From the sequence record NC_105513.1: 51,277 nucleotides of DNA. One strand, 5' to 3'. Source of the stretch: a phage. Numbering within the stretch: position 1 is the first letter of the stretch; each line of letters begins with the position of its first letter. Positions 4,456-40,111 of the stretch are shown here, one piece after another. The translations under genes and the position numbers were made by a program. Below the pieces are notes generated by a model, which ran no database searches, was not told the origin of the DNA, and saw only the letters and a list, made by a program, of their open reading frames with translations.

Positions 4456-4708
4456 GGCATTAATTGGAGTTTTGATTGCAATCGCTACCCTTACCGGATG
4501 CGAAAAGGCATCTGAATCAACAGTTGTCGTAGGAGTGGAGTCAGATTTTAAAGTCGGTCGCCTGTTTACTGTTGATGGATGCACTGCGTACCGATTCTAT
4601 GACAACGGTCGAGCAATCTATTACACCAATTGTAAGGGCGCAACGGATAGCACATACCGCAGCGGCAAAAACGTAATGCACCAACAAGTCACAACAGATA
4701 TTAAATAG
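4448..4708 (+). CDS. putative lipoprotein
   Basis: 86 aa; N-terminal signal peptide with lipobox LTGC (MNKALIGVLIAIATLTGCEK). Confidence 0.6.
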   Translation: MNKALIGVLIAIATLTGCEKASESTVVVGVESDFKVGRLFTVDGCTAYRFYDNGRAIYYTNCKGATDSTYRSGKNVMHQQVTTDIK

Positions 4709-11711: not shown

Positions 11712-12233
11712 ATGGCTAAAAACGTTGAGCCAGCAGTAAAGGCTTGCAATTTTAAAAAACTATATAATAAGCAATATGGCGATATAGCAAAAATGACAAA
11801 GGCGCACAAGTACACGCCGGAGCAGGTATTTGATCTGGCTGTTCGTTACTTTACGTGGGCTGAGGAAAACCATATACAGGCTGCGGAAACGGCATCCTTT
11901 CAGGGTGACGTATACGAAAGTAAGATTCACAAGCCGCGCGTGTTCACCTTAAATGGATTCCGCTTATTCGCTGGCCTTTCTGCCTCCGTACTTGAAAAAT
12001 GGCGACGTGAGCCAGGATTCAGCGATGTTATGGACTTTATCGACGGCGTTGTTTACGAGCAAAAATTCCAGCTTGCCGCAAACAATATTGTTAACGCTGG
12101 ATTCATTGGCAAAGAGATCGGCATTGAAAAGCCAGCTACCGTTACCATTGAGAATAACACAAGCGCCAGCGTTGACGCTGTAACGGCGGAGGAAGTAAAA
12201 GAGGCGGTAATTGACATTCTGGAGAAGATATAA
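11712..12233 (+). CDS. putative terminase small subunit
   Basis: 173 aa directly upstream of and overlapping the large terminase start; RBS AAGGAGGG; assigned by position only. Confidence 0.5.
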   Translation: MAKNVEPAVKACNFKKLYNKQYGDIAKMTKAHKYTPEQVFDLAVRYFTWAEENHIQAAETASFQGDVYESKIHKPRVFTLNGFRLFAGLSASVLEKWRREPGFSDVMDFIDGVVYEQKFQLAANNIVNAGFIGKEIGIEKPATVTIENNTSASVDAVTAEEVKEAVIDILEKI

Positions 12234-13801
12234 TGCTGATTTGGGAAGACTTAACAGCGGCGCAAAAACGCGCCGTTAAGGAAATGAGCGAATATTCATT
12301 CGAAAAGATGATCCGCATTTGGTTTCAACTTCTCCAGGGGCAAAGGTTTTTAGGAAACTGGCATTTCAGTTACCTATGCAGCGAAGTTGAAAAAATCATC
12401 AAAGGCGAGTCACAGAATGTAATTTTCAACATAACGCCAGGCAGTGGTAAAACAGAGATATTCTCGATCCACATGTCACCTTATGCGTCATTGAAAAGTA
12501 AGAAGGTGAGAAATCTTAATTTGTCGTTTAGTGATGGCCTTGTCCAGCAGAATAGCAACCGCATCAAAGAGATTATTGGTTCTCCAGAATGGCAGGAGCT
12601 ATGGCCTGGAAAGTTGGCAAAGGCGAGCGCAAAGGATTTGATTGTAACTGATGGCGGCAAGGTTAAATTACAAGTTAACTCGCGTTCTATCGGAGGTCAG
12701 GTTACTGGTCTGCGTGGTGGCTACATGGACGATGGTTTTACTGGTATGTTGGTTCTTGATGATCCAGACAAGCCGGATGACATGCTTTCTAAGGTGAAGC
12801 GCGAAGCCGGACACATGCGCCTAAAGAACACGGTGCGATCGCGTCGAATGAAGGACACCACGCCAATTGTGATGGTTCAGCAACGTCTACACGTCAATGA
12901 TTCAACATGGTTCATGACAAACGGCGGCATGGGCGGCATCAAGTTTAAGGTGGTTAGTATTCCGGCGCTCGTTACTAAGGAATATCGCGAAACGCTTCCT
13001 GATTGGTTAAAGCCTGAGTTTGATCGCGATGTTTTGTCCAGTAAGCCAGTGATGATTGATGGCGTTGCTCATTATTCATTCTGGCCTGCTAAGGAAAGCG
13101 CGGATGAATTGCTTGCGCTTCGCAATGCCGATCCGTACACGTTCGCTAGTCAGTATCAGCAACAGCCTGTTGCGCTTGGCGGTAACGTGTTTAAAACAGA
13201 GTGGTTTCAGTATTACGGAAGCAGCGAGAAATGCACGCTACCAAAACCGGATCGCTTTGAATATACATTTATCACGGTTGATACCGCGCAGAAAACAGGG
13301 GAGCTTAACGACTATTCCGTGATCTGTTATTGGGGGATGTATAAAGATCGTGTCTACTTCATTGATGGCGTTCGCGGGAAATGGGAAGCACCGGACCTTG
13401 AGACGAATTTTGTTGCATTCGTTAATCAGTGCTGGAAGCGCAATAAAGAATGCGGAACGTTGCGAAGGATTCATGTTGAAGATAAATCGTCTGGCACTGG
13501 ATTGATTCAGAGTGCGGCGAAAAAAATCATGATCAAGATCAATCCCGTTCAGCGCGATAAAGACAAGGTTACTCGTGCAATGGACGCAGCACCAGTAATG
13601 CGCGCCGGACGCGTGGCACTTCCAGAATCTCATTCTATGCTGGCTGAGATACTCGCTGAAGTTGCGGCGTTCACATTCGATGATTCGCATCCTCATGATG
13701 ATATTGTTGATAACATCATTGATGCGGTTAACATTGAAATGAACATGGCAGATGATCCGGTTGGAAGAATGAAAAAATTGGCAGGTTTGCGGAACAAATA
13801 G
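12233..13801 (+). CDS. terminase large subunit
   Basis: 522 aa; N-terminal ATPase with Walker A ITPGSGKTE and acidic Walker B LVLDDPDKPDD; C-terminal nuclease-like region; position before portal. Confidence 0.85.
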   Translation: MLIWEDLTAAQKRAVKEMSEYSFEKMIRIWFQLLQGQRFLGNWHFSYLCSEVEKIIKGESQNVIFNITPGSGKTEIFSIHMSPYASLKSKKVRNLNLSFSDGLVQQNSNRIKEIIGSPEWQELWPGKLAKASAKDLIVTDGGKVKLQVNSRSIGGQVTGLRGGYMDDGFTGMLVLDDPDKPDDMLSKVKREAGHMRLKNTVRSRRMKDTTPIVMVQQRLHVNDSTWFMTNGGMGGIKFKVVSIPALVTKEYRETLPDWLKPEFDRDVLSSKPVMIDGVAHYSFWPAKESADELLALRNADPYTFASQYQQQPVALGGNVFKTEWFQYYGSSEKCTLPKPDRFEYTFITVDTAQKTGELNDYSVICYWGMYKDRVYFIDGVRGKWEAPDLETNFVAFVNQCWKRNKECGTLRRIHVEDKSSGTGLIQSAAKKIMIKINPVQRDKDKVTRAMDAAPVMRAGRVALPESHSMLAEILAEVAAFTFDDSHPHDDIVDNIIDAVNIEMNMADDPVGRMKKLAGLRNK

Positions 13802-20254: not shown

Positions 20255-20690
20255 AAACTACACGATAAGGGAATTTCACGGCAACATTGATGCGTGGATA
20301 AAAGCCGTTGATAGTGGACTAAAAGATTGCGTGGAGTTGTTCGCCGAAAAAGTACACACAGATTTGGTTAAGCGTTCTCCGGTAGATACTGGTCGTTACC
20401 GTGGAAACTGGCAGGTGACAGCAAATAAGCCGCCATTGTATGCGCTTAATCAGTACGATAAGCACGGAGACAAAACGATCGCGGAAGGAAAACGTGCCAT
20501 ATACGCAATATTACGAGGTGGCGGCGCAGTAAGAGCTATTTATTTTTCTAACATGCTTATTTATGCTAACGCGCTTGAGTACGGTCATTCAAAACAAGCG
20601 CCAGCGGGTGTGCTTGGTATTGTTGCCGTGAAATTGCGTTCATATATGGCTGAGGCAATAAAAGAGTCGAGGGCAAAAAATGCACTATGA
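20247..20690 (+). CDS. putative neck / tail component
   Basis: 147 aa; gene order. Confidence 0.4.
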   Translation: MAKNYTIREFHGNIDAWIKAVDSGLKDCVELFAEKVHTDLVKRSPVDTGRYRGNWQVTANKPPLYALNQYDKHGDKTIAEGKRAIYAILRGGGAVRAIYFSNMLIYANALEYGHSKQAPAGVLGIVAVKLRSYMAEAIKESRAKNAL

Positions 20691-21078
20691 ATTAATGCTA
20701 TCGGCGCGTAAGGCGCTGGCGACTGAATACGAAAGCAGATTCATGATCGCTTATGAAAACGTAGAGTTTACGCCACCTGGTGACGGTTCGCCGTGGTTGA
20801 AGTTTGACTATGCCGAAGTTAACACAGAATACTTGTCATTGGATCGAAAATGCGTTTCTTATATCGGAATGATTCAGGTTGGCATTGTGTTTCCACCAGG
20901 TTACGGAACTGACAGGCCGCGCGTTCTCGCTAAAGAGATTGCGCAATTCTTTTACGATGGTAAAATGCTGGAGCATGGTTATATATATGAGGGTGCAAGA
21001 GTTCACAAACCGCTCAAGAGTGAAAGCGGATGGCTTCTCCCTATAAGGTTTTATGTTCGAATTGAAACAAAGGAGTAA
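20680..21078 (+). CDS. putative tail completion protein
   Basis: 132 aa; gene order. Confidence 0.4.
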   Translation: MHYELMLSARKALATEYESRFMIAYENVEFTPPGDGSPWLKFDYAEVNTEYLSLDRKCVSYIGMIQVGIVFPPGYGTDRPRVLAKEIAQFFYDGKMLEHGYIYEGARVHKPLKSESGWLLPIRFYVRIETKE

Positions 21079-21083
21079 AAATT

Positions 21084-21746
21084 ATGCATTTACCAAATGG
21101 ATCGCAAATTTTCGTTGAGAGCAATCGCGGAAGCGAAATCCAAGCAACAGCAGTGTCAAACGCCAAAGATCCTGTTTTCACTGTTGCATCTGGCGGCACT
21201 GCGTACAAGAAAGGTGATTATGTGATCATCACTGCGTCTTCTTGGGGTAAGCTGATTGATCGTGTTATGCGTGTAAAGGCTAACGGTGAAGAAACAAGCG
21301 TGACTCTTGAAGGTGTAGATACTACTGATCAGAACGTTTTCCCGACTGGCGGTACTGCATCTTTTGCCAAAATTGATGCATGGACTGAGATCCCTTGCGT
21401 TCAAGATTTGTCGCAGGACGGCGGCGAACAGCAATACTACACTTATCAGTGTTTGGCAGACGATCAGGAACAGCAGTTACCTACCTATAAGAGCGCCGTT
21501 TCTCTTACCTACACTTTTGCGCACGAATACGATAACGCGATCTATCCGCTATTGCGTTCAGCAGATGAATCAGGCGAAGTAACCGCGCTTCGCATGTATG
21601 TACCAAAAGCAAAAGAGATGCGTTGCTGGGCTGGTGTCCTTTCGTTTAACGAAATCCCGAAGACCACAGTTAACGAAATGGAAACCGTTTCCCTATCTGT
21701 ATCCCTGAAAGGTCGATTCACCTTCCTACCTTCTCAAGTAGCATAA
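21084..21746 (+). CDS. major tail protein
   Basis: 220 aa, RBS AAGGAG; followed by strong terminator then chaperone and tape measure genes. Confidence 0.6.
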   Translation: MHLPNGSQIFVESNRGSEIQATAVSNAKDPVFTVASGGTAYKKGDYVIITASSWGKLIDRVMRVKANGEETSVTLEGVDTTDQNVFPTGGTASFAKIDAWTEIPCVQDLSQDGGEQQYYTYQCLADDQEQQLPTYKSAVSLTYTFAHEYDNAIYPLLRSADESGEVTALRMYVPKAKEMRCWAGVLSFNEIPKTTVNEMETVSLSVSLKGRFTFLPSQVA

Positions 21747-21752
21747 TCACAA

Positions 21753-21774
21753 GGGGCGTTGCGCCCCTTTTTTT
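21753..21774 (+). terminator. rho-independent terminator after major tail gene
   Basis: GGGGCG-TTG-CGCCCC then TTTTTTT. Confidence 0.7.
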
Positions 21775-21807
21775 GTTACTGTACAATCATGCTACACGAT
21801 TCATAAT
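21773..21807 (+). promoter_or_regulatory. putative promoter TTGTTA-N23-CATAAT
   Basis: immediately after major-tail terminator, upstream of chaperone gene. Confidence 0.4.
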
Positions 21808-21813
21808 CAATTC

Positions 21814-21832
21814 TTTTAACAAAAAGTGCTAT
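21814..21832 (-). promoter_or_regulatory. orphan box copy, inverted, abutting RBS of chaperone gene
   Basis: TTTTAACAAAAAGTGCTAT directly before CAAGGAGAAAGAAATG. Confidence 0.4.
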
Positions 21833-21845
21833 CAAGGAGAAAGAA

Positions 21846-22163
21846 ATGTCAAAAATGAAATTGACGATTGGGCCGCTTCCTGACTTTAAATTACCAGTGA
21901 AATTTGCAATGCCTAACGGAGAAGATCAAACAATTATCTTCACAGTTCGCCACCGCAAAACAAGTGAGATTCACGATCGCTACACGTCAGATACTCCAAT
22001 GAGCGATGTTGAAATGATCACCTTCCTTGCTTCCGGTTGGAATCTTGATGATGAATTTAACGAAGAAAATATTAAACAGCTTCTTGATTACTACCCAGCA
22101 ACAGCAATCGGATTAACTAGCGCATACATGAAAGCGCTTGCGGGGCAGCGAGTAAAAAACTAA
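21846..22163 (+). CDS. tail assembly chaperone (G-like)
   Basis: 105 aa; ends at slippery heptamer A_AAA_AAC 22154..22160 directly before TAA. Confidence 0.7.
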   Translation: MSKMKLTIGPLPDFKLPVKFAMPNGEDQTIIFTVRHRKTSEIHDRYTSDTPMSDVEMITFLASGWNLDDEFNEENIKQLLDYYPATAIGLTSAYMKALAGQRVKN

Positions 22164-22474
22164 AAAGGGCGGTTTACCTGTTTTATCAGAAACCGCCGAC
22201 AGATGCAGAGCTTGAGGCTGTTGGCCTTACAAGGGCAGACTATGAAGGAGAAGATCCGCCAGAGGTTATATTTGATGAAAGCATGATGCAATCATGGGAT
22301 ATATTTTGCGCAATGCAAACGCAATGGAGATGTTCTGGCGGTGGCGCTTACGGATTTGATTATAATGTCTTGCCTATGCTTTTTGAGATTTACAAGGTTG
22401 AGGATCGCGAGATGGCGCTAAACGACTTGCGAATCATGGAGCAAAAAGCACTTGAAATGATGCATTCAAAATAA
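21846..22474 (+). CDS. tail assembly chaperone -1 frameshift product (GT-like)
   Basis: -1 frame is open from the slippery site to 22474 (KKLKRAVYLFYQK...); stem-loop GGCGGTTT...AAACCGCC downstream of slip site. Confidence 0.55.
22154..22160 (+). other. programmed -1 ribosomal frameshift slippery heptamer A_AAA_AAC
   Basis: canonical X_XXY_YYZ in the zero frame, directly before stop; -1 frame open for 104 codons. Confidence 0.6.
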
Positions 22475-22496
22475 GCGCCTACGGGCGCTTTTTTAT
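22474..22496 (+). terminator. rho-independent terminator after GT frameshift ORF
   Basis: AGCGCC-TACG-GGCGCT then TTTTTT. Confidence 0.6.
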
Positions 22497-22513
22497 TACC
22501 TGGAGGATTAATA

Positions 22514-25186
22514 ATGTCAGAACAATACGCAGGCTTGACGCTTGGGGTTGACGTTTCTCAACTCAACAATGCTGTAAAGTCTTTGCAGCAATTCAAGAAG
22601 GCAAACGACGACGCAAAGGGAAGCATTGAGAGTTTTGTTGATTCAGAGGTTGTTGCAAGACAAAGAGCCAAACAACTGGCTGAGGAATTGGCAAAGCAGA
22701 AGCAAGAATTTAAAGCAATTCAGTCGGCAATAGATCCGACAGCAAGCAAAATGGATAAGTTGCGCCAGGCTGCGACACAGCTTGATGCGCTTTGGAAAAA
22801 AGGAATTGTTCCGGATGATACATTCTTTGAGTTAGGATCAATTCTTGAGACGCAGCAAAACAAACTGATCGCAACTAAAAAGGCGCTAACTGAAGAAGGC
22901 CGCGCGGCGCTTGAGGAAGCAAAAAACAAGGCAAGGGCAGAGGCTGAGGCAAGAAAGTTCATTGCGGCATTGCAGGCGCAAGCTGACGCAGCGGAAAAAA
23001 CAAAATCAGAGCTTGTCGAAATGAGAGCCGCACAACTTGGAGTTAGTGCAGAGGCAGCGCCATTTATTGCAAAAATGAAGGAGCAGGAAAAACAAGCCTC
23101 AAAACTTGGCGTTTCTATGGGGCAGTACAAGCAAGCAATGGCGCAATTGCCAATGCAGATCACTGACGTTGTTACTTCTCTTGCTTCAGGTATGCCAGTA
23201 TGGATGATCGCAATCCAGCAGGGGGGGCAAATCAAGGACTCATTCGGCGGTGTTGCTAATACGTTTAAAGCGCTAATGACATTTGTCACGCCGCTAAGTG
23301 TTGGCATGACGGCGCTGACTGGTGCGCTTGGTTATGCTGCATATAATGCATACAAAGCAAATGCGCAACTAAAGGAGATCACAAAAACCGTTCAGGAGGC
23401 AACTGGTCTTTCTGGTGATTTTGCGGAGCGTATTGCAACTGGAATCCAGGCGCTATCTGACAAGACAGGAGAGAGCGCAGACAATATCGCAAAGGCTTAC
23501 ATAAGCACGAAGGATGGAGCAAGCGAGGCTATACAAAAACTCGTCGATGTTGGTTTTACCTATGATGAAGCAAAGGCTAAGGTAAACGAATACAAAAACG
23601 CATCAAGTTTTGTAAGTCTTAACAATGAAATTGCTGATCACAAAAACAAAGTTCTTGAGCTTGGTGATTCATGGTATGCGGTCTTAAAAGCAAAACGTGA
23701 TTATGCTTCACCGTCCGGCGGGCTGTTGGGGAAAGAGCTTGGTTATGTGAATCCAATGCTGCAATTTGCGAAGAACACCTATGAGGATATAGGAAAGATC
23801 GTAAAAGATGCGAATAAGGATATGGCGGAACGAGCAGCACGCATCGACAGAGAAAACCTTTCATTAAACAGAGTTCGAGCGGCGCAAGAGGCTTTAAACA
23901 AAGCCATAGAGGATCAGAAGAACGTAGCAAGGACAGCAGACGAAGAGTTGAAAAAGCGCGCGGCTGAGAACGTGGAGTTCAGGCGAAAAGAGCTTGAAGA
24001 GGCGAAGAAGGCGCAGCAGCAAAAGGAGAAAGTTGGTGGAGTTGTAAAAGCACCAACAGAGCAGCTTGATAAGGAGCTATATGTTCTCAAGGCGCAACTT
24101 GAAACGCTGAAAGAGCACCGAACTGTAAATGATGTTATTTCACGCCAGAGGCAATCTTTGTGGAGCATTGAAAAGCAGATCCAGATCCTTGAGGAAGCGC
24201 AAAGTAAACGCAAGCTGACAAAAGCGGAACAGGCGTTACTAAACGAGCAAAAAGCAGTTATTGCTATGGCAAAAGAAAAGGCAGAGATAGGCGATCAGAT
24301 TGTTTTGCAACAGAGAAAGAACAAGCAATACCAGGAAGGGCTTAAATTCATTCAGCAAACATCAGATGCTATTGACGCTATGAACTTGCGACAGTCTGGA
24401 GCTACAGATCTGCAAATCCAGCGAGAGCTTGAGTTGAAGAAGTTGCGAACTGATTATGTTGCTGGCGGCGGTAGTATCGACGATGAAATTTATCAGCAGA
24501 TGGAAGCAAAGCTGAAGGAGTATTACGCCACTGAGGATCAGCTTAGAAATAACTGGATTGCAGGAGCAAAAAACGCATGGGAGGTTTACGGACAAGATGC
24601 AATGGATATGTACGGCAACGTGCAAGATATTGCAAGCGAGGCGCTCAACGGTCTAACCAACCAAATGGCTACATTCCTTGCAACAGGAAAGGCAAACTTT
24701 AAGAGCTTCGCAACGTCAATCATCCAAATGATTATCCAGATGATCACAAAGATGGTTATCTTTAATGCCATATCCGGTGCGATTGGCGGTGACACTTGGA
24801 CGATTGGAAGCCTTCTTAAAAATGTTGGATTTGCAACTGGTGGATACACTGGCGACGGCGGGAAGTATGAGCCAGCAGGTGTTGTTCATAAAGGCGAGTT
24901 TGTCATGACGAAGGAGGCCACGAAGCGGATCGGAGTTGGAAATCTTTACAAAATGATGCGCGGTTATGCAAATGGCGGCGTTGTTGGCGGCACTTCATAC
25001 ACTGGCGGCGGAGTTTCATCTGGAGCAACAAATCTTAATATTGGCGGGATCAGCGTTGATATTAACAACGGAAGCGATCCGAAAGGGTTGGAGACTGGCG
25101 TAAAAATGATTTTCACTGATATGATTAAGCGTTCCTGTACGCAGGGTGGGGAAGTTTACGAATTTGTTATGTCTAAGCGGGGGTGA
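22514..25186 (+). CDS. tail tape measure protein
   Basis: 890 aa, long alpha-helical charged N-terminal two-thirds, hydrophobic segment, Gly-rich C-terminus; position after G/GT. Confidence 0.85.
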
Positions 25187-25242
25187 TAGTGAAACTTGAG
25201 CAATTCAAATGGTGCACGCAAACGCAAGGAGGCGGCGGCACT

Positions 25243-25539
25243 ATGACCACATCAAATAACGACAGGGAAATCTCATTTGGTAATGGTTACACGCAGGTTG
25301 CGTCAGGAGGGTTTAACACGGTACGCAGGGAGTTTTCCATTGTCTATGTTGGCAAGGATTACAGAGACGTTGTTGACTTCCTGAATGGACACAGGCTGAA
25401 GCCGTTTTTATGGTTTATGCCTGACGGTCAACCTGGTCTATTCAGGGTAAAATCTGGTAGCGTTGGATTAACTCCAATATCAGCAACCGTTCAGGAAGTG
25501 AAAGCAACATTTACTGAGCAATTTACATCAATGCAATAA
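25243..25539 (+). CDS. minor tail protein (lambda M-like)
   Basis: 98 aa from MTTSNND, RBS AAGGAGG; position after tape measure. Confidence 0.6.
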   Translation: MTTSNNDREISFGNGYTQVASGGFNTVRREFSIVYVGKDYRDVVDFLNGHRLKPFLWFMPDGQPGLFRVKSGSVGLTPISATVQEVKATFTEQFTSMQ

Positions 25540-37714: not shown

Positions 37715-40111
37715 TTAACTCTCAAGAGTTGTTGGCTTGTTGATCAATGCAGAAACAGCCGCTTTTAACTCCTCTATTTCTTCTCTCATTGATTTCAAGT
37801 CTTCTTCTTGCTCCTTACATACCTGAAGTAAATATGCTGAAATTGCTGAGTAATCAACTTGTAAAAATTCAGCTTTACCTATTAACTCACTTCCGTCTTT
37901 CGTCGGCCCTTGAAGATAATCATAATCCTCAAAAGTGCTAACAGCTTCAGGAATAACTCCTTGAACTTCTTGTGCTATAACTCCAACATGACGAGATCCA
38001 TCTTTCTTAAGTGTGTATGAATACCCACACAGTTTACTAAGTCCATCCCTTGCATTCTTAAGTGGTTTTATATCTTCCTTAAGATTTACATCCGATCCCT
38101 GGTTGAAAGCGCTTGCGTTTACAGGTCCGTTAACCTGAAGATGCTTTGTGTTATTTGAGTTTAATTGCGCATAAAAAACCCACCCAGGGCCATTATCGAA
38201 ACCACACTCAATAACCGACAATCGATCTGACCCATTACCCCACAATTTGAAGGTTGCAGGGTGTGACGAGTTGCCGTCGTTCAGCATTTTGAAATACTTT
38301 CCGCTCGGACGGTCGATCTCTAAACTTGCGGCCTGGACGTATGCCTTGCCCGCAAAATTCTTTGTACCAAGCACAACGCCGTCTGTGATCAGATCAACCT
38401 TAGACGATGTAACATCGTTCAGGAATAGCGCGTTCGCCCCAGTGTCCTTCCCTAAAAACCAAAGACGCGTGCCTGCTGAGTTGTACCCTGTTACGTGCAG
38501 TGGTTGGTTGTTTGTTGACGTTGTTCCGTCGATCCGGAAGCCACCATTAGCGGTTGTAACTTTAATGCTGGGTACGGTCATAGCAAATGTGCCACTGGCT
38601 GCAAGGCCATTATAGGCAATCAGCTTGTTGTCATATGCAAGCTCACCATTGTCCCTTAATTGCAAGAATTTATTAGATGCCGAGTTGGAAACAGAAACAT
38701 CATTAGGCCAGGTGCGAAGAACTGCGCGCTTTTCGTCCCCTCTAGCCTCCACCGAAGAACCAGCGACCACCCCAGAAAAAGTCGGCGACGACCCCGCGTT
38801 ATACAGTTCGTACCACTGCGACCATGGGCCAGTCGTCGCGTTGCCTAGCCATCGAATCCAACGCCGCCCGTTGCCGTAGGCGGTGTACGTCTGTACGCAA
38901 CTCTTCGGATCGTTAGCACCGGATCTTTGCACCAGTAAACAACCCGCCATGTTAATAGGATAGTTACGCTCTGGGGTGGCGTTAGCCGACATGGACTGAT
39001 AATAAAATCCAGCCTTATCACCCTGAAGGATGTTAAGGTCTTCGCTAACCAACGTTGCCCGTCGCTCATGCATGACCTGAAGGTTGGCGCGCGCTCCCTG
39101 GTCGTTCGATGCGCCTGTCCCGCCGTCCCCGATCGCCACGTCACCGTTAGCACCCAGCTTCGCCAGTTCAATGGCGCCAACACTTCCCGACGCACCGTTG
39201 ATCGCGTTGTTGTTCCCCGAGAAAACTTTAACGCGCGAGGTTTGCCAATCAACGTTGATTGCAAAGAATGTATCCCCCGCGCCTCCACATACGCCAGGTC
39301 CGTATCTGAAAGGGGTCATCTCACCCGATGGGAACTGCGAAATATCATCGACGCGCCAGAATCCTCCTTTGACCGTATCGCGCAACCGCTTGAGCATATC
39401 CCTTACGCCAGTCGGTGCCGGTAATGTTACGCCAGCATACGGCACTCTATTTTGAGCTTCTGAGCTTTCAGCAGCAGCCGCTGCGCGATCAGCCTCTGTT
39501 TTAGCCTTGTTCGCACTGTTTGCAGCATTAGTTTCAGATGTTTTGGCGTTTGTCTCAGAAGTCTTCGCGGCACTAGCCGAGTTAGCAGCATTAGTTTCCG
39601 ATGTTTTAGCCGCATTCTTACTTGCATTAGCTGCATTTTCAGATGCTTTGGCATTAGTTTCCGATGTTTTAGCGTTTGTCTCAGAAGTCTTCGCAGCGCT
39701 GGCGCTTTGTTTTGCTGATTCAGCGCCTTGCTTGACTTGATTTACAAGATCCTTCAATCCTTCAAGATCGAAATCTCTAAAAAATTCAAGTGCGTCAGCG
39801 ATCTCTGTTTCTTTGCTTTGATAGTAACGCAATGTTTCAGCTACATCTTGAGCAAGACCATCAACAGTTATTGAGTCATGAAGTAAGATCGCGTAATTTG
39901 AACGGGCAACTACCGCGCCACCAGTTGTAATTGCACGAATGCTTGTATCGTTAATAACTTCAGTTATCACGGCAATCTGCAACGGCTGAGTTAAAAATAC
40001 AATAGTTGCACCAGGGCGAATGAGCGTTAGTTGCTCTCGCCATTTTGTGTCGTATCCAGTGATATAACCTTGCGCGTCCATTGACGCTTGTCCTGTTCTG
40101 TAAATTGCCAT
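37715..40111 (-). CDS. L-shaped (side) tail fibre, T5 pb1-like, with C-terminal intramolecular chaperone domain
   Basis: 798 aa from MAIYRTGQ (RBS GGAGAAA); AAKTSETNA-type repeats as in T5 pb1; C-terminal segment resembling S74 self-cleaving chaperone domain. Confidence 0.8.
39480..39720 (-). repeat. in-frame tandem repeats (about 62-bp period) inside tail fibre gene
   Basis: GCATTAGTTTC(A/C)GATGTTTT(G/A)GC recurs at about 39527, 39589, 39651; encodes AAKTSETNA-type repeats. Confidence 0.7.

Follow-up and report, generated by a model that had tools for sequence, protein, structure and literature searches.

Very probable programmed −1 ribosomal frameshifting between the tail chaperone frames of a T1-like siphophage

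Two tail assembly chaperones, a short one and a longer fusion, are very probably made from overlapping reading frames of this siphophage by programmed −1 ribosomal frameshifting. The phage is a T1-like coliphage (Drexlerviridae, Tempevirinae, Hanrivervirus), analyzed here over a stretch of 51,277 nucleotides (NC_105513.1, hereafter the window) that shares 100% identity with Escherichia phage JLBYU09 at positions 21000–23000 and 99.8% across ~95% of the first 50 kb. Most ribosomes would synthesize a 105-aa chaperone and halt at the TAA at 22161; a small fraction would slip back one base on the heptamer A_AAA_AAC (tRNA-Lys re-pairing from AAA to AAA, tRNA-Asn from AAC to AAA), restart at CTA (22160) and add 104 “T” residues of the DUF1799 type, yielding a 209-aa (24 kDa) fusion that joins ...QRVKN to LKRAVY.... 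A stem-loop 7 nt 3′ of the heptamer probably pauses the ribosome over it, raising the frequency of slipping in this clade. On the model of lambda gpG/gpGT, we expect the tape measure protein to be coated by the short form, with the T domain of the rare long form recruiting the tube protein, such that the ratio set by frameshifting would control tail assembly. We infer the slip itself, its frequency, its stimulation by the hairpin and the functions of both proteins; for no T1-like phage did the searchable literature offer direct experimental evidence of the fusion protein.

The initial annotation had placed the two reading frames in a tail module, an assignment that is borne out by their neighbors, the pair being situated between a Phage_tail_3 tube gene and a TMP_2/Tape_meas_lam_C tape measure gene (gene order: tube, Phage_TAC_4 chaperone, DUF1799, tape measure; all features on the plus strand unless a Pfam match only is given). 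A Phage_tail_terminator_5 match (Pfam, 20680–21078, E = 6.3e-21) lies upstream of the major tail (tube) protein gene, which is the 5′ neighbor of the pair (ORF at 21084–21746; Phage_tail_3, E = 1.5e-64). The tube gene is followed by a terminator-like GC hairpin with a T-run (21751–21769), a site with which annotated terminators in phages T1 and Sazh coincide. Just 5′ of the Shine–Dalgarno (SD) sequence of the chaperone gene, at 21814–21832, is one copy of the T1-type dispersed asymmetric repeat TTTTAACAAAAAGTGCTAT; the window contains 16 copies where 0.06 would be expected, and the repeat has been described for Stevie and T1 (PMC4319613).

The G-like tail assembly (tape measure) chaperone gene itself (21846–22163, 105 aa, computed mass 11.96 kDa) is preceded by the SD sequence AAGGAG (21834–21839, 6-nt spacer to the ATG at 21846), and its product matches Phage_TAC_4 (PF08748) over residues 1–105 (E = 2.9e-31; 108.7 bits, against a Pfam cutoff of 21.1). 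The T-like −1 frame segment (22160–22474, 104 codons and a TAA) matches DUF1799 (PF08809; E = 6.8e-13; 49.1 bits, cutoff 26), and together the two thus pass the Pfam gathering thresholds of a chaperone pair of the T1/TLS TfmA–TfmB type. A second terminator-like hairpin with a T-run (22473–22490) is found between the T stop and the tape measure gene, at a place equivalent to that of an annotated terminator in T1 and Sazh. The tape measure gene (22514–25186; TMP_2, E = 2.3e-35; Tape_meas_lam_C, E = 6.5e-22) is the 3′ neighbor, with a Phage_min_tail match (Pfam, E = 9.7e-19) at 25183–25539 beyond it.

The slip site and its conservation

Codons counted from the ATG at 21846 (gta at 22152, aaa at 22155, aac at 22158, taa at 22161) place the heptamer A_AAA_AAC at 22154–22160, in X_XXY_YYZ register at the tail end of G and immediately before the TAA, in agreement with the initial annotation. 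The 3′ end of the gene reads gcg ggg cag cga gta aaa aac TAA, with the product ending ...AGQRVKN; the zero-frame stop (22161–22163) abuts the heptamer, its surroundings being read as cTA-Aaa (Leu-Lys) in the −1 frame. On retranslation, the −1 frame gave the same 104 sense codons up to 22474 that had been claimed for it (from the CTA at 22160, with its TAA at 22472–22474), and in the 5′ direction it is open only as far as 22121 (TAG at 22118–22120). The predicted GT fusion, join(21846..22160, 22160..22474), would comprise 209 aa with a computed mass of 24.09 kDa.

The heptamer by itself is not significant, since A_AAA_AAC occurs 22 times in the window and 21.8 copies are expected; it is the combination of heptamer and long −1 extension that is unusual. 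Within ORFs of at least 80 aa in the window we counted 57 in-register X_XXY_YYZ heptamers, with a median −1 extension of 7 codons, and just three of these extended at least 50 codons beyond the zero-frame stop. The other two of these three, T_TTA_AAA near 13190 and A_AAA_AAA near 996, were rejected because their host ORFs are spurious, one lying inside the 522-aa gene at 12233–13801 and one running antisense to minus-strand ORFs. A search for an upstream SD-like enhancer found only a weak GGGG at 22142–22145 and none conserved across 66 sequence contexts, in which the Gly codon at this place varies between GGG, GGC, GGT and GGA (entropy 1.98 bits). An Rfam scan of positions 21700–22600 at E ≤ 10 gave sub-threshold chance matches only, with no frameshift-element family among them.

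Comparison with about 90 related loci (66 distinct 105-nt contexts, out of 86 loci, for the analysis of slip-site selection) shows nucleotide-level selection on the heptamer. At the third position of G codon −3, where the heptamer begins, A is found in all 66 contexts (0 bits), whereas the twelve G-frame third positions 5′ of the heptamer have entropies of 1.09–1.98 bits; we ascribe this to selection on the heptamer because the A is invariant even though the codon switches between Val (45) and Ala (21). G codon −2 is AAA in 59 contexts and AAG in seven, and G codon −1 ends in C in 65 of the 66.

Among 74 IMG/VR loci, AAAAAAC followed directly by a stop is present in 64, of which 62 have TAA, as in the window, and two have TGA. 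The remaining junctions are AAAGGTC + TAA (5/74, Rogunavirinae, reading gcA_AAG_gtc with A_AAG kept), GGGAAAC + TGA (1/74, the remote relative L095) and TAAAAAC + TAA, with a run of five A residues (4/74); in addition, the GenBank locus of the Warwickvirus phage Jahat has A_AAG_GGT + TAA. Judged by their sequence, the A_AAG_GGT and gcA_AAG_gtc variants would still be shift-prone. The four A5 loci are probably errors of sequencing or assembly: L061 and L094 contain further ORF breaks, while in L056 the C-terminus of G differs and the N-terminus of the tape measure is repeated four-fold.

These variants bear on a second way in which the two frames could be joined, namely transcriptional slippage, whereby RNA polymerase would add one A in the A6 run (22154–22159) and the junction would read ...VKKLKR. 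The homopolymeric run that this requires is present, and the A5 loci indicate that it is indel-prone, at least in sequencing; yet relatives with AAAGGTC, AAAGGGT or GGGAAAC sites keep G and a −1 T without any long homopolymer, the heptamer never departs from the X_XXY_YYZ register of ribosomal slippage, and the A5 variants accompany other ORF-breaking errors. Appreciable slippage by E. coli RNA polymerase, moreover, needs runs of about nine or more, longer than A6. We regard polymerase slippage as highly improbable and favor ribosomal slippage, because only a ribosomal slip explains the AAAGGTC, AAAGGGT and GGGAAAC sites.

Three more distant loci extend the comparison. L095 (T 39% identical to that of the window) has G_GGA_AAC + TGA and a hairpin of −19.9 kcal/mol after a 7-nt spacer; L096 (T 49% identical over residues 48–104) has A_AAA_AAC + TGA and a hairpin after a 6-nt spacer, the folded 62-nt segment reaching −21.8 kcal/mol; and L097 (T 31% identical) has an in-register A_AAA_AAG 12 codons 5′ of the stop, with an 8-bp stem 14 nt downstream. 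All three heptamers are in register and each is accompanied by an unrelated 3′ hairpin. By these alignments, conservation of the slip site and of the −1 ORF extends throughout Drexlerviridae and to remote relatives. Taken together, the loci form a natural slip-site series (A_AAA_AAC, A_AAG_GGT, A_AAG, G_GGA_AAC and A_AAA_AAG, with and without a hairpin).

Translation of the −1 frame

The principal alternative to recoding is that T is a separate gene started at the ATG at 22283 (63 aa, 7.5 kDa; 22283–22474, plus strand, the C-terminal part of T), with the heptamer and hairpin incidental. Most GenBank records carry this ORF or a similarly short separate CDS, JLBYU09, Henu8, pSf-1, KarlJaspers and T1 among them; the ATG (T codon 42, the first in-frame start) is kept in 16 of 17 sampled relatives, and the chance-level count of the heptamer in the window is likewise compatible with such a reading. 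The initial annotation had named translation from this ATG only as the outcome that would speak against a frameshift, an outcome that is contradicted by the coding pattern, the start of the conserved peptide and the absence of an SD sequence, as follows.

In 17 non-redundant Drexlerviridae sequences (65–80% nucleotide identity), the peptide LKRAV opens the T product at the first codon past the slip site without exception and in a gapless alignment. Over T codons 2–41, which lie 5′ of the ATG at 22283, pairwise differences per site amount to 0.229 at first, 0.162 at second and 0.555 at third codon positions, a concentration at position 3 that is typical of a translated frame. This pattern among relatives shows the −1 frame to be coding from the slip site onward, 41 codons ahead of the proposed start.

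Profile matches place the boundary similarly. The Pfam alignment to DUF1799 begins at T residue 22, 5′ of the ATG, and a PHROG profile reaches upstream of it as well: the G-like chaperone gene matches PHROG 569/17368, of which PHROG 17368 is one profile of 213 positions, aligned with G at positions 1–107 and with the −1 ORF at 109–211. Because this single profile matches both ORFs end to end, PHROG 17368 is, on the evidence of the alignment, a family built from fused products. A sequence search of the PDB with the 209-aa fusion returned no meaningful match.

The ATG at 22283 is also poorly equipped as a start. Its sole SD-like sequence, AGAGG, is 17 nt upstream and there is none at 5–10 nt, unlike the G and tape measure genes, which have AAGGAG/GGAGG 6–7 nt from their starts. 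The ATG is missing in LF82-11, and the starts annotated for the downstream ORF in other relatives are differing and arbitrary, varying with the annotator. The invariance of the first heptamer A despite an amino-acid change argues in the same direction. An independent T gene is therefore very hard to reconcile with these observations, and the 63-aa ORF is most likely an annotation artifact, to judge by the comparisons above; an extra, independently initiated short T product may be made beside the fusion.

The downstream hairpin and the mode of slippage

The stem-loop 3′ of the heptamer consists of an 8-bp stem, GGCGGTTT at 22168–22175 pairing with AAACCGCC at 22190–22197 (plus strand), and an inner stem of 3 bp (22178–22180/22187–22189), separated from the heptamer by a spacer of 7 nt. 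The initial annotation had described a stem-loop at 22168–22198 at a plausible stimulatory distance; the structure and its spacing stand, with its 3′ end corrected by one base to 22197. The predicted minimum free energy (MFE) is −15.1 kcal/mol (z = −2.05 against dinucleotide shuffles), and the hairpin is retained in both the MFE and the centroid folds of a 201-nt context.

Because the stem lies in sequence that is coding only in the T frame, its dependence on the encoded peptide could be assessed by resampling synonymous codons according to the codon usage of the window, keeping the peptide constant. None of 3000 such versions reached −15.1 kcal/mol (null −5.5 ± 2.7), and the corresponding fractions for other hairpin-bearing lineages, T1-type ones included, were 0.0003 (L015), 0 (L013 and L059), 0.01 (L095) and 0.019 (L021); hairpin-less lineages displayed no excess folding in this comparison. 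One of the relatives (L026) encodes the identical peptide RAVYLFYQKPPTDA without a hairpin, its fold reaching only −2.7 kcal/mol. Since the same peptide can thus be encoded without the fold (0/3000; L026), the hairpin is probably no mere by-product of the protein.

Tempevirinae and Tunavirinae, T1 included, possess the hairpin, with energies of about −13 to −20 kcal/mol, but it is weak or absent in Braunvirinae, Rogunavirinae, Kyungwonvirus and some Tempevirinae-like contigs. In LF82-11 (L021) another hairpin occupies this place, its stem differing from that of L065 by a compensatory change (GGGCA/TGCCC vs GGGCG/CGCCC); across 52 distinct sequences, pair covariation was 0.119, no better than the 0.120 obtained with the partners slid by −1. 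The resampling and the unrelated hairpins at this place in L021, L095 and L096 speak for selection on the structure, the covariation count and the clades that lack it against. On balance the hairpin is probably selected in the clade of the window and dispensable in other clades, and it is probably a clade-specific frameshift stimulator rather than a universal one. A possible pseudoknot noticed by eye (loop CUGU with a downstream ACAG) was dropped, the partner alternating between ACAG and ACTG in relatives.

Given that the hairpin is not shared by all clades, a further reading accepts the fusion and replaces the hairpin-paused tandem slip by a single-tRNA slip with an abutting stop (“shifty stop”), in which either peptidyl-tRNA-Asn moves from AAC to AAA with TAA in the A site, or tRNA-Lys shifts on A_AAA ahead of AAC decoding. 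The stop codons of relatives make this worth considering: TAA or TGA directly follows the heptamer site in 66/66 distinct Drexlerviridae contexts and also in L095 and L096, and T codon 1 is drawn from stop-creating Leu codons only (CTA 63, CTG 2 and TTA 1 of the 66), CTT never being used there although it is the commonest Leu codon in the genome (261/775). Several hairpin-less clades retain heptamer and stop, and the Rogunavirinae keep A_AAG only. Set against this, the stem would be just 4 nt away with TAA in the A site, whereas a 7-nt hairpin spacing fits AAC in the A site, as is generally the case for −1 signals; the stop may persist only because G would otherwise be extended by 40 codons in the zero frame; and in L097 the heptamer lies 12 codons ahead of the stop, so that adjacency is not obligatory. 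On balance we consider the single-tRNA slip possible but unlikely. A related proposal, which we offer tentatively and would not ourselves bet on, is that the conserved unit comprises one or more shift-prone A_AAR codons and the abutting stop, with the hairpin an optional element that clades gain or lose in adjusting their G:GT ratio; were this true, lineages with the same peptide, with and without a hairpin (the window and L026), would differ in efficiency or compensate elsewhere.

For the tandem slip that we prefer, the identity of the heptamer suggests a modest yield. A_AAA_AAC is far less shift-prone in E. coli than A_AAA_AAG (PMC5009743), and for this reason its slip efficiency could be very low; such low shift-proneness suits a product needed at a low ratio.

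Known frameshift systems and annotation

The nearest counterparts are in sister phages. At the homologous site, phage TLS (NC_009540) has a two-piece joined CDS, tfmS, alongside tfmA and tfmB, and Citrobacter phage Sazh (NC_048065) has one labeled “Tape measure chaperone frameshift product”. The genes of TLS and Sazh, and ST40/ST39 of T1, are homologous Drexlerviridae genes in the same position between tube and tape measure; they share with the window the junction gtAAAAAACTAA and the GGCGGTTT...AAACCGCC hairpin, at a nucleotide identity of only 73–74% over G–T. A frameshift has been noted in genome announcements of the T1-like phages Stevie, Skenny and Solomon (PMC4319613, PMC6763657, PMC8407766). 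The site is thus already known, being annotated in TLS and Sazh and mentioned in these announcements.

Tail assembly chaperone frameshifting of the G/GT type in tailed phages is a class reportedly set out by Xu, Hendrix and Duda in 2004, and the −1 shift that yields lambda gpG and gpGT is said to have been described by Levin in 1993 and by Xu, Hendrix and Duda in 2004, 2013 and 2014. The window shares with this class two ORFs between the tube and tape measure genes, a −1 overlap (from 22121) without a credible start of its own, an in-register X_XXY_YYZ heptamer inside the overlap (22154–22160), and conservation in diverged relatives together with selection on the slip site. As for the hairpin-stimulated class (dnaX/IS911 type), the window has a stem-loop within 5–9 nt past the heptamer (7 nt) and lacks the upstream SD-like enhancer.

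Lambda itself resembles the window in that a pair of chaperone ORFs separates the major tail gene from the tape measure gene, the second in the −1 frame with a canonical heptamer near the end of the first, and in the expectation of a low-level fusion that sets the G:GT ratio. The lambda heptamer is G_GGA_AAG rather than A_AAA_AAC, and the G and T proteins of lambda belong, as we assume, to the Pfam families Phage_TAC_2 and Phage_tail_T. In the window, unlike lambda, the stop abuts the heptamer, a probably selected hairpin follows, and the families are Phage_TAC_4 and DUF1799. The biology of lambda G/GT has been reviewed, with a G:GT ratio of about 30:1, and G_GGA_AAG is listed among the heptamers that are shift-prone in E. 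coli (PMC5009743).

Neither part of the pair matched lambda G/T or any other TAC/T family in Pfam at E ≤ 0.1, and NCBIfam gave no match for the G part or the −1 part. Because both kinds of match are lacking at these thresholds, we place the pair outside the lambda sequence families; it would be a functional analogue of lambda gpG/gpT and at most a distant relative. The lambda-like G/GT mechanism claimed in the initial annotation is supported in each element that the sequences could address: by position, by the Phage_TAC_4/DUF1799 pair, by conservation and by the joined CDSs of TLS and Sazh. The phage is T1-like and not lambdoid, however, and the Pfam families are other ones.

The identical heptamer serves as a natural −1 site in E. 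coli in IS1 insA-insB′, which we take to be the A_AAA_AAC_1 cluster; the stop of IS1, unlike that of the window, is not next to the heptamer. The cluster (of E. coli IS elements) has been called “a proven case of frameshifting” (Sharma et al, 2014; PMC4066793), and IS1 further differs from the window in encoding a transposase and in having no established downstream stimulator (PMC4066793). E. coli dnaX (A_AAA_AAG) resembles the window in its A-rich heptamer, in a stable stem-loop ~6–7 nt on and in the production of two isoforms from one gene. It has an upstream SD-like enhancer, and its shifted frame ends almost at once, whereas that of the window adds a domain. A further difference is the far more efficient AAG A-site codon of dnaX (PMC5009743).

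The main value of the site is for annotation, the biology adding little in that the T1 group would use the same strategy of short and long chaperones as lambda. The correct annotation is join(21846..22160, 22160..22474), in place of the 63-aa ORF or of arbitrary starts; unlike TLS and Sazh, the nearest record (JLBYU09) and the T1 reference leave the fusion unannotated, and many other Drexlerviridae entries likewise do not have the 209-aa joined product. RefSeq names both chaperone ORFs “tail length tape measure protein”. The series of slip-site variants, some with a hairpin and some lacking one, would lend itself to studying the tuning of a low-efficiency frameshift by phages. According to a recent report, the bacterial immune sensor Avs17 targets the N-terminal chaperone core, which is common to the short and the long isoform (PMC13581612).

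Natural variants of the G–T junction

The slippery site joining the tail assembly chaperone gene G to its −1 frame extension T, A_AAA_AAC before TAA in the window, exists in several natural variants among the related loci. The junction reads gcA_AAG_gtc-TAA in Rogunavirinae (L008, L016, L083, L089, L092 and L093), such that the slippery part comprises the A_AAG tetramer only, and A_AAG_GGT-TAA in Jahat (Warwickvirus, L009); A_AAA_AAC is retained in L084, which is closely related to the Rogunavirinae type.

Four IMG/VR contigs (L056, L057, L061 and L094) carry a run of five rather than six adenines near locus position 695, which would set T in the +1/−2 frame relative to G. These shortened runs are probably homopolymer or assembly errors. 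Further broken ORFs are present in L061 and L094, and the N-terminus of the tape measure is duplicated four-fold in L056, but the L057 run is found without any other visible defect.

Chaperone genes in public records

Many public records present the T segment as an independent ORF of 55–103 aa with differing starts (separate in OK272487, MN055691, NC_021331, MZ501090 and NC_005833; the ORF from ATG 22283 spans window 22283–22474), and in RefSeq the two chaperone ORFs bear the same name, “tail length tape measure protein”. Among the records inspected, a joined frameshift CDS is present only in TLS and Sazh. Chaperone genes of T1-like coliphage type, with 73–77% identity to the window, also occur in records named for Campylobacter phages (e.g., MG065687, MG065673 and MG065643) or Streptococcus phages (e.g., MBBL140, OR786094), which suggests mislabeled hosts or contaminating T1-like phages.

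Terminator-like hairpins and a dispersed repeat

The G–T cistron is flanked on either side by a terminator-like GC hairpin and T-run (21751–21769 and 22473–22490), equivalent in position to terminators annotated in both T1 and Sazh; transcription of the chaperone pair may thus be insulated or attenuated in comparison with that of the tube and tape measure genes. An asymmetric 19-nt motif, TTTTAACAAAAAGTGCTAT, has one of its copies after the tube-gene terminator and ahead of the chaperone gene SD; it is found 16 times in the window (0.06 expected by chance), on the plus strand at 57, 1924, 2419, 3296, 18054, 21814, 32632, 48491 and 50658, and on the minus strand at 4705, 5698, 6914, 9561, 41686, 44204 and 45245. 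The motif agrees with a 22-bp repeat of Stevie and T1, the role of which is given as unknown (PMC4319613).

Closest relative and a tandem repeat

The window (1–51277; 51,277 nt) matches JLBYU09 (OK272487; 48,988 nt) at 99.8% identity, with coverage by matches of only 94–96%; given this coverage and the difference in length, it is a very close relative in which ~2 kb of the sequence is additional or has been replaced. An imperfect tandem repeat at 39525–39703, with GCATTAGTTTCAGATGTTTTGGC-like units and copy spacings in multiples of 21 nt, probably represents a repetitive peptide inside a gene.
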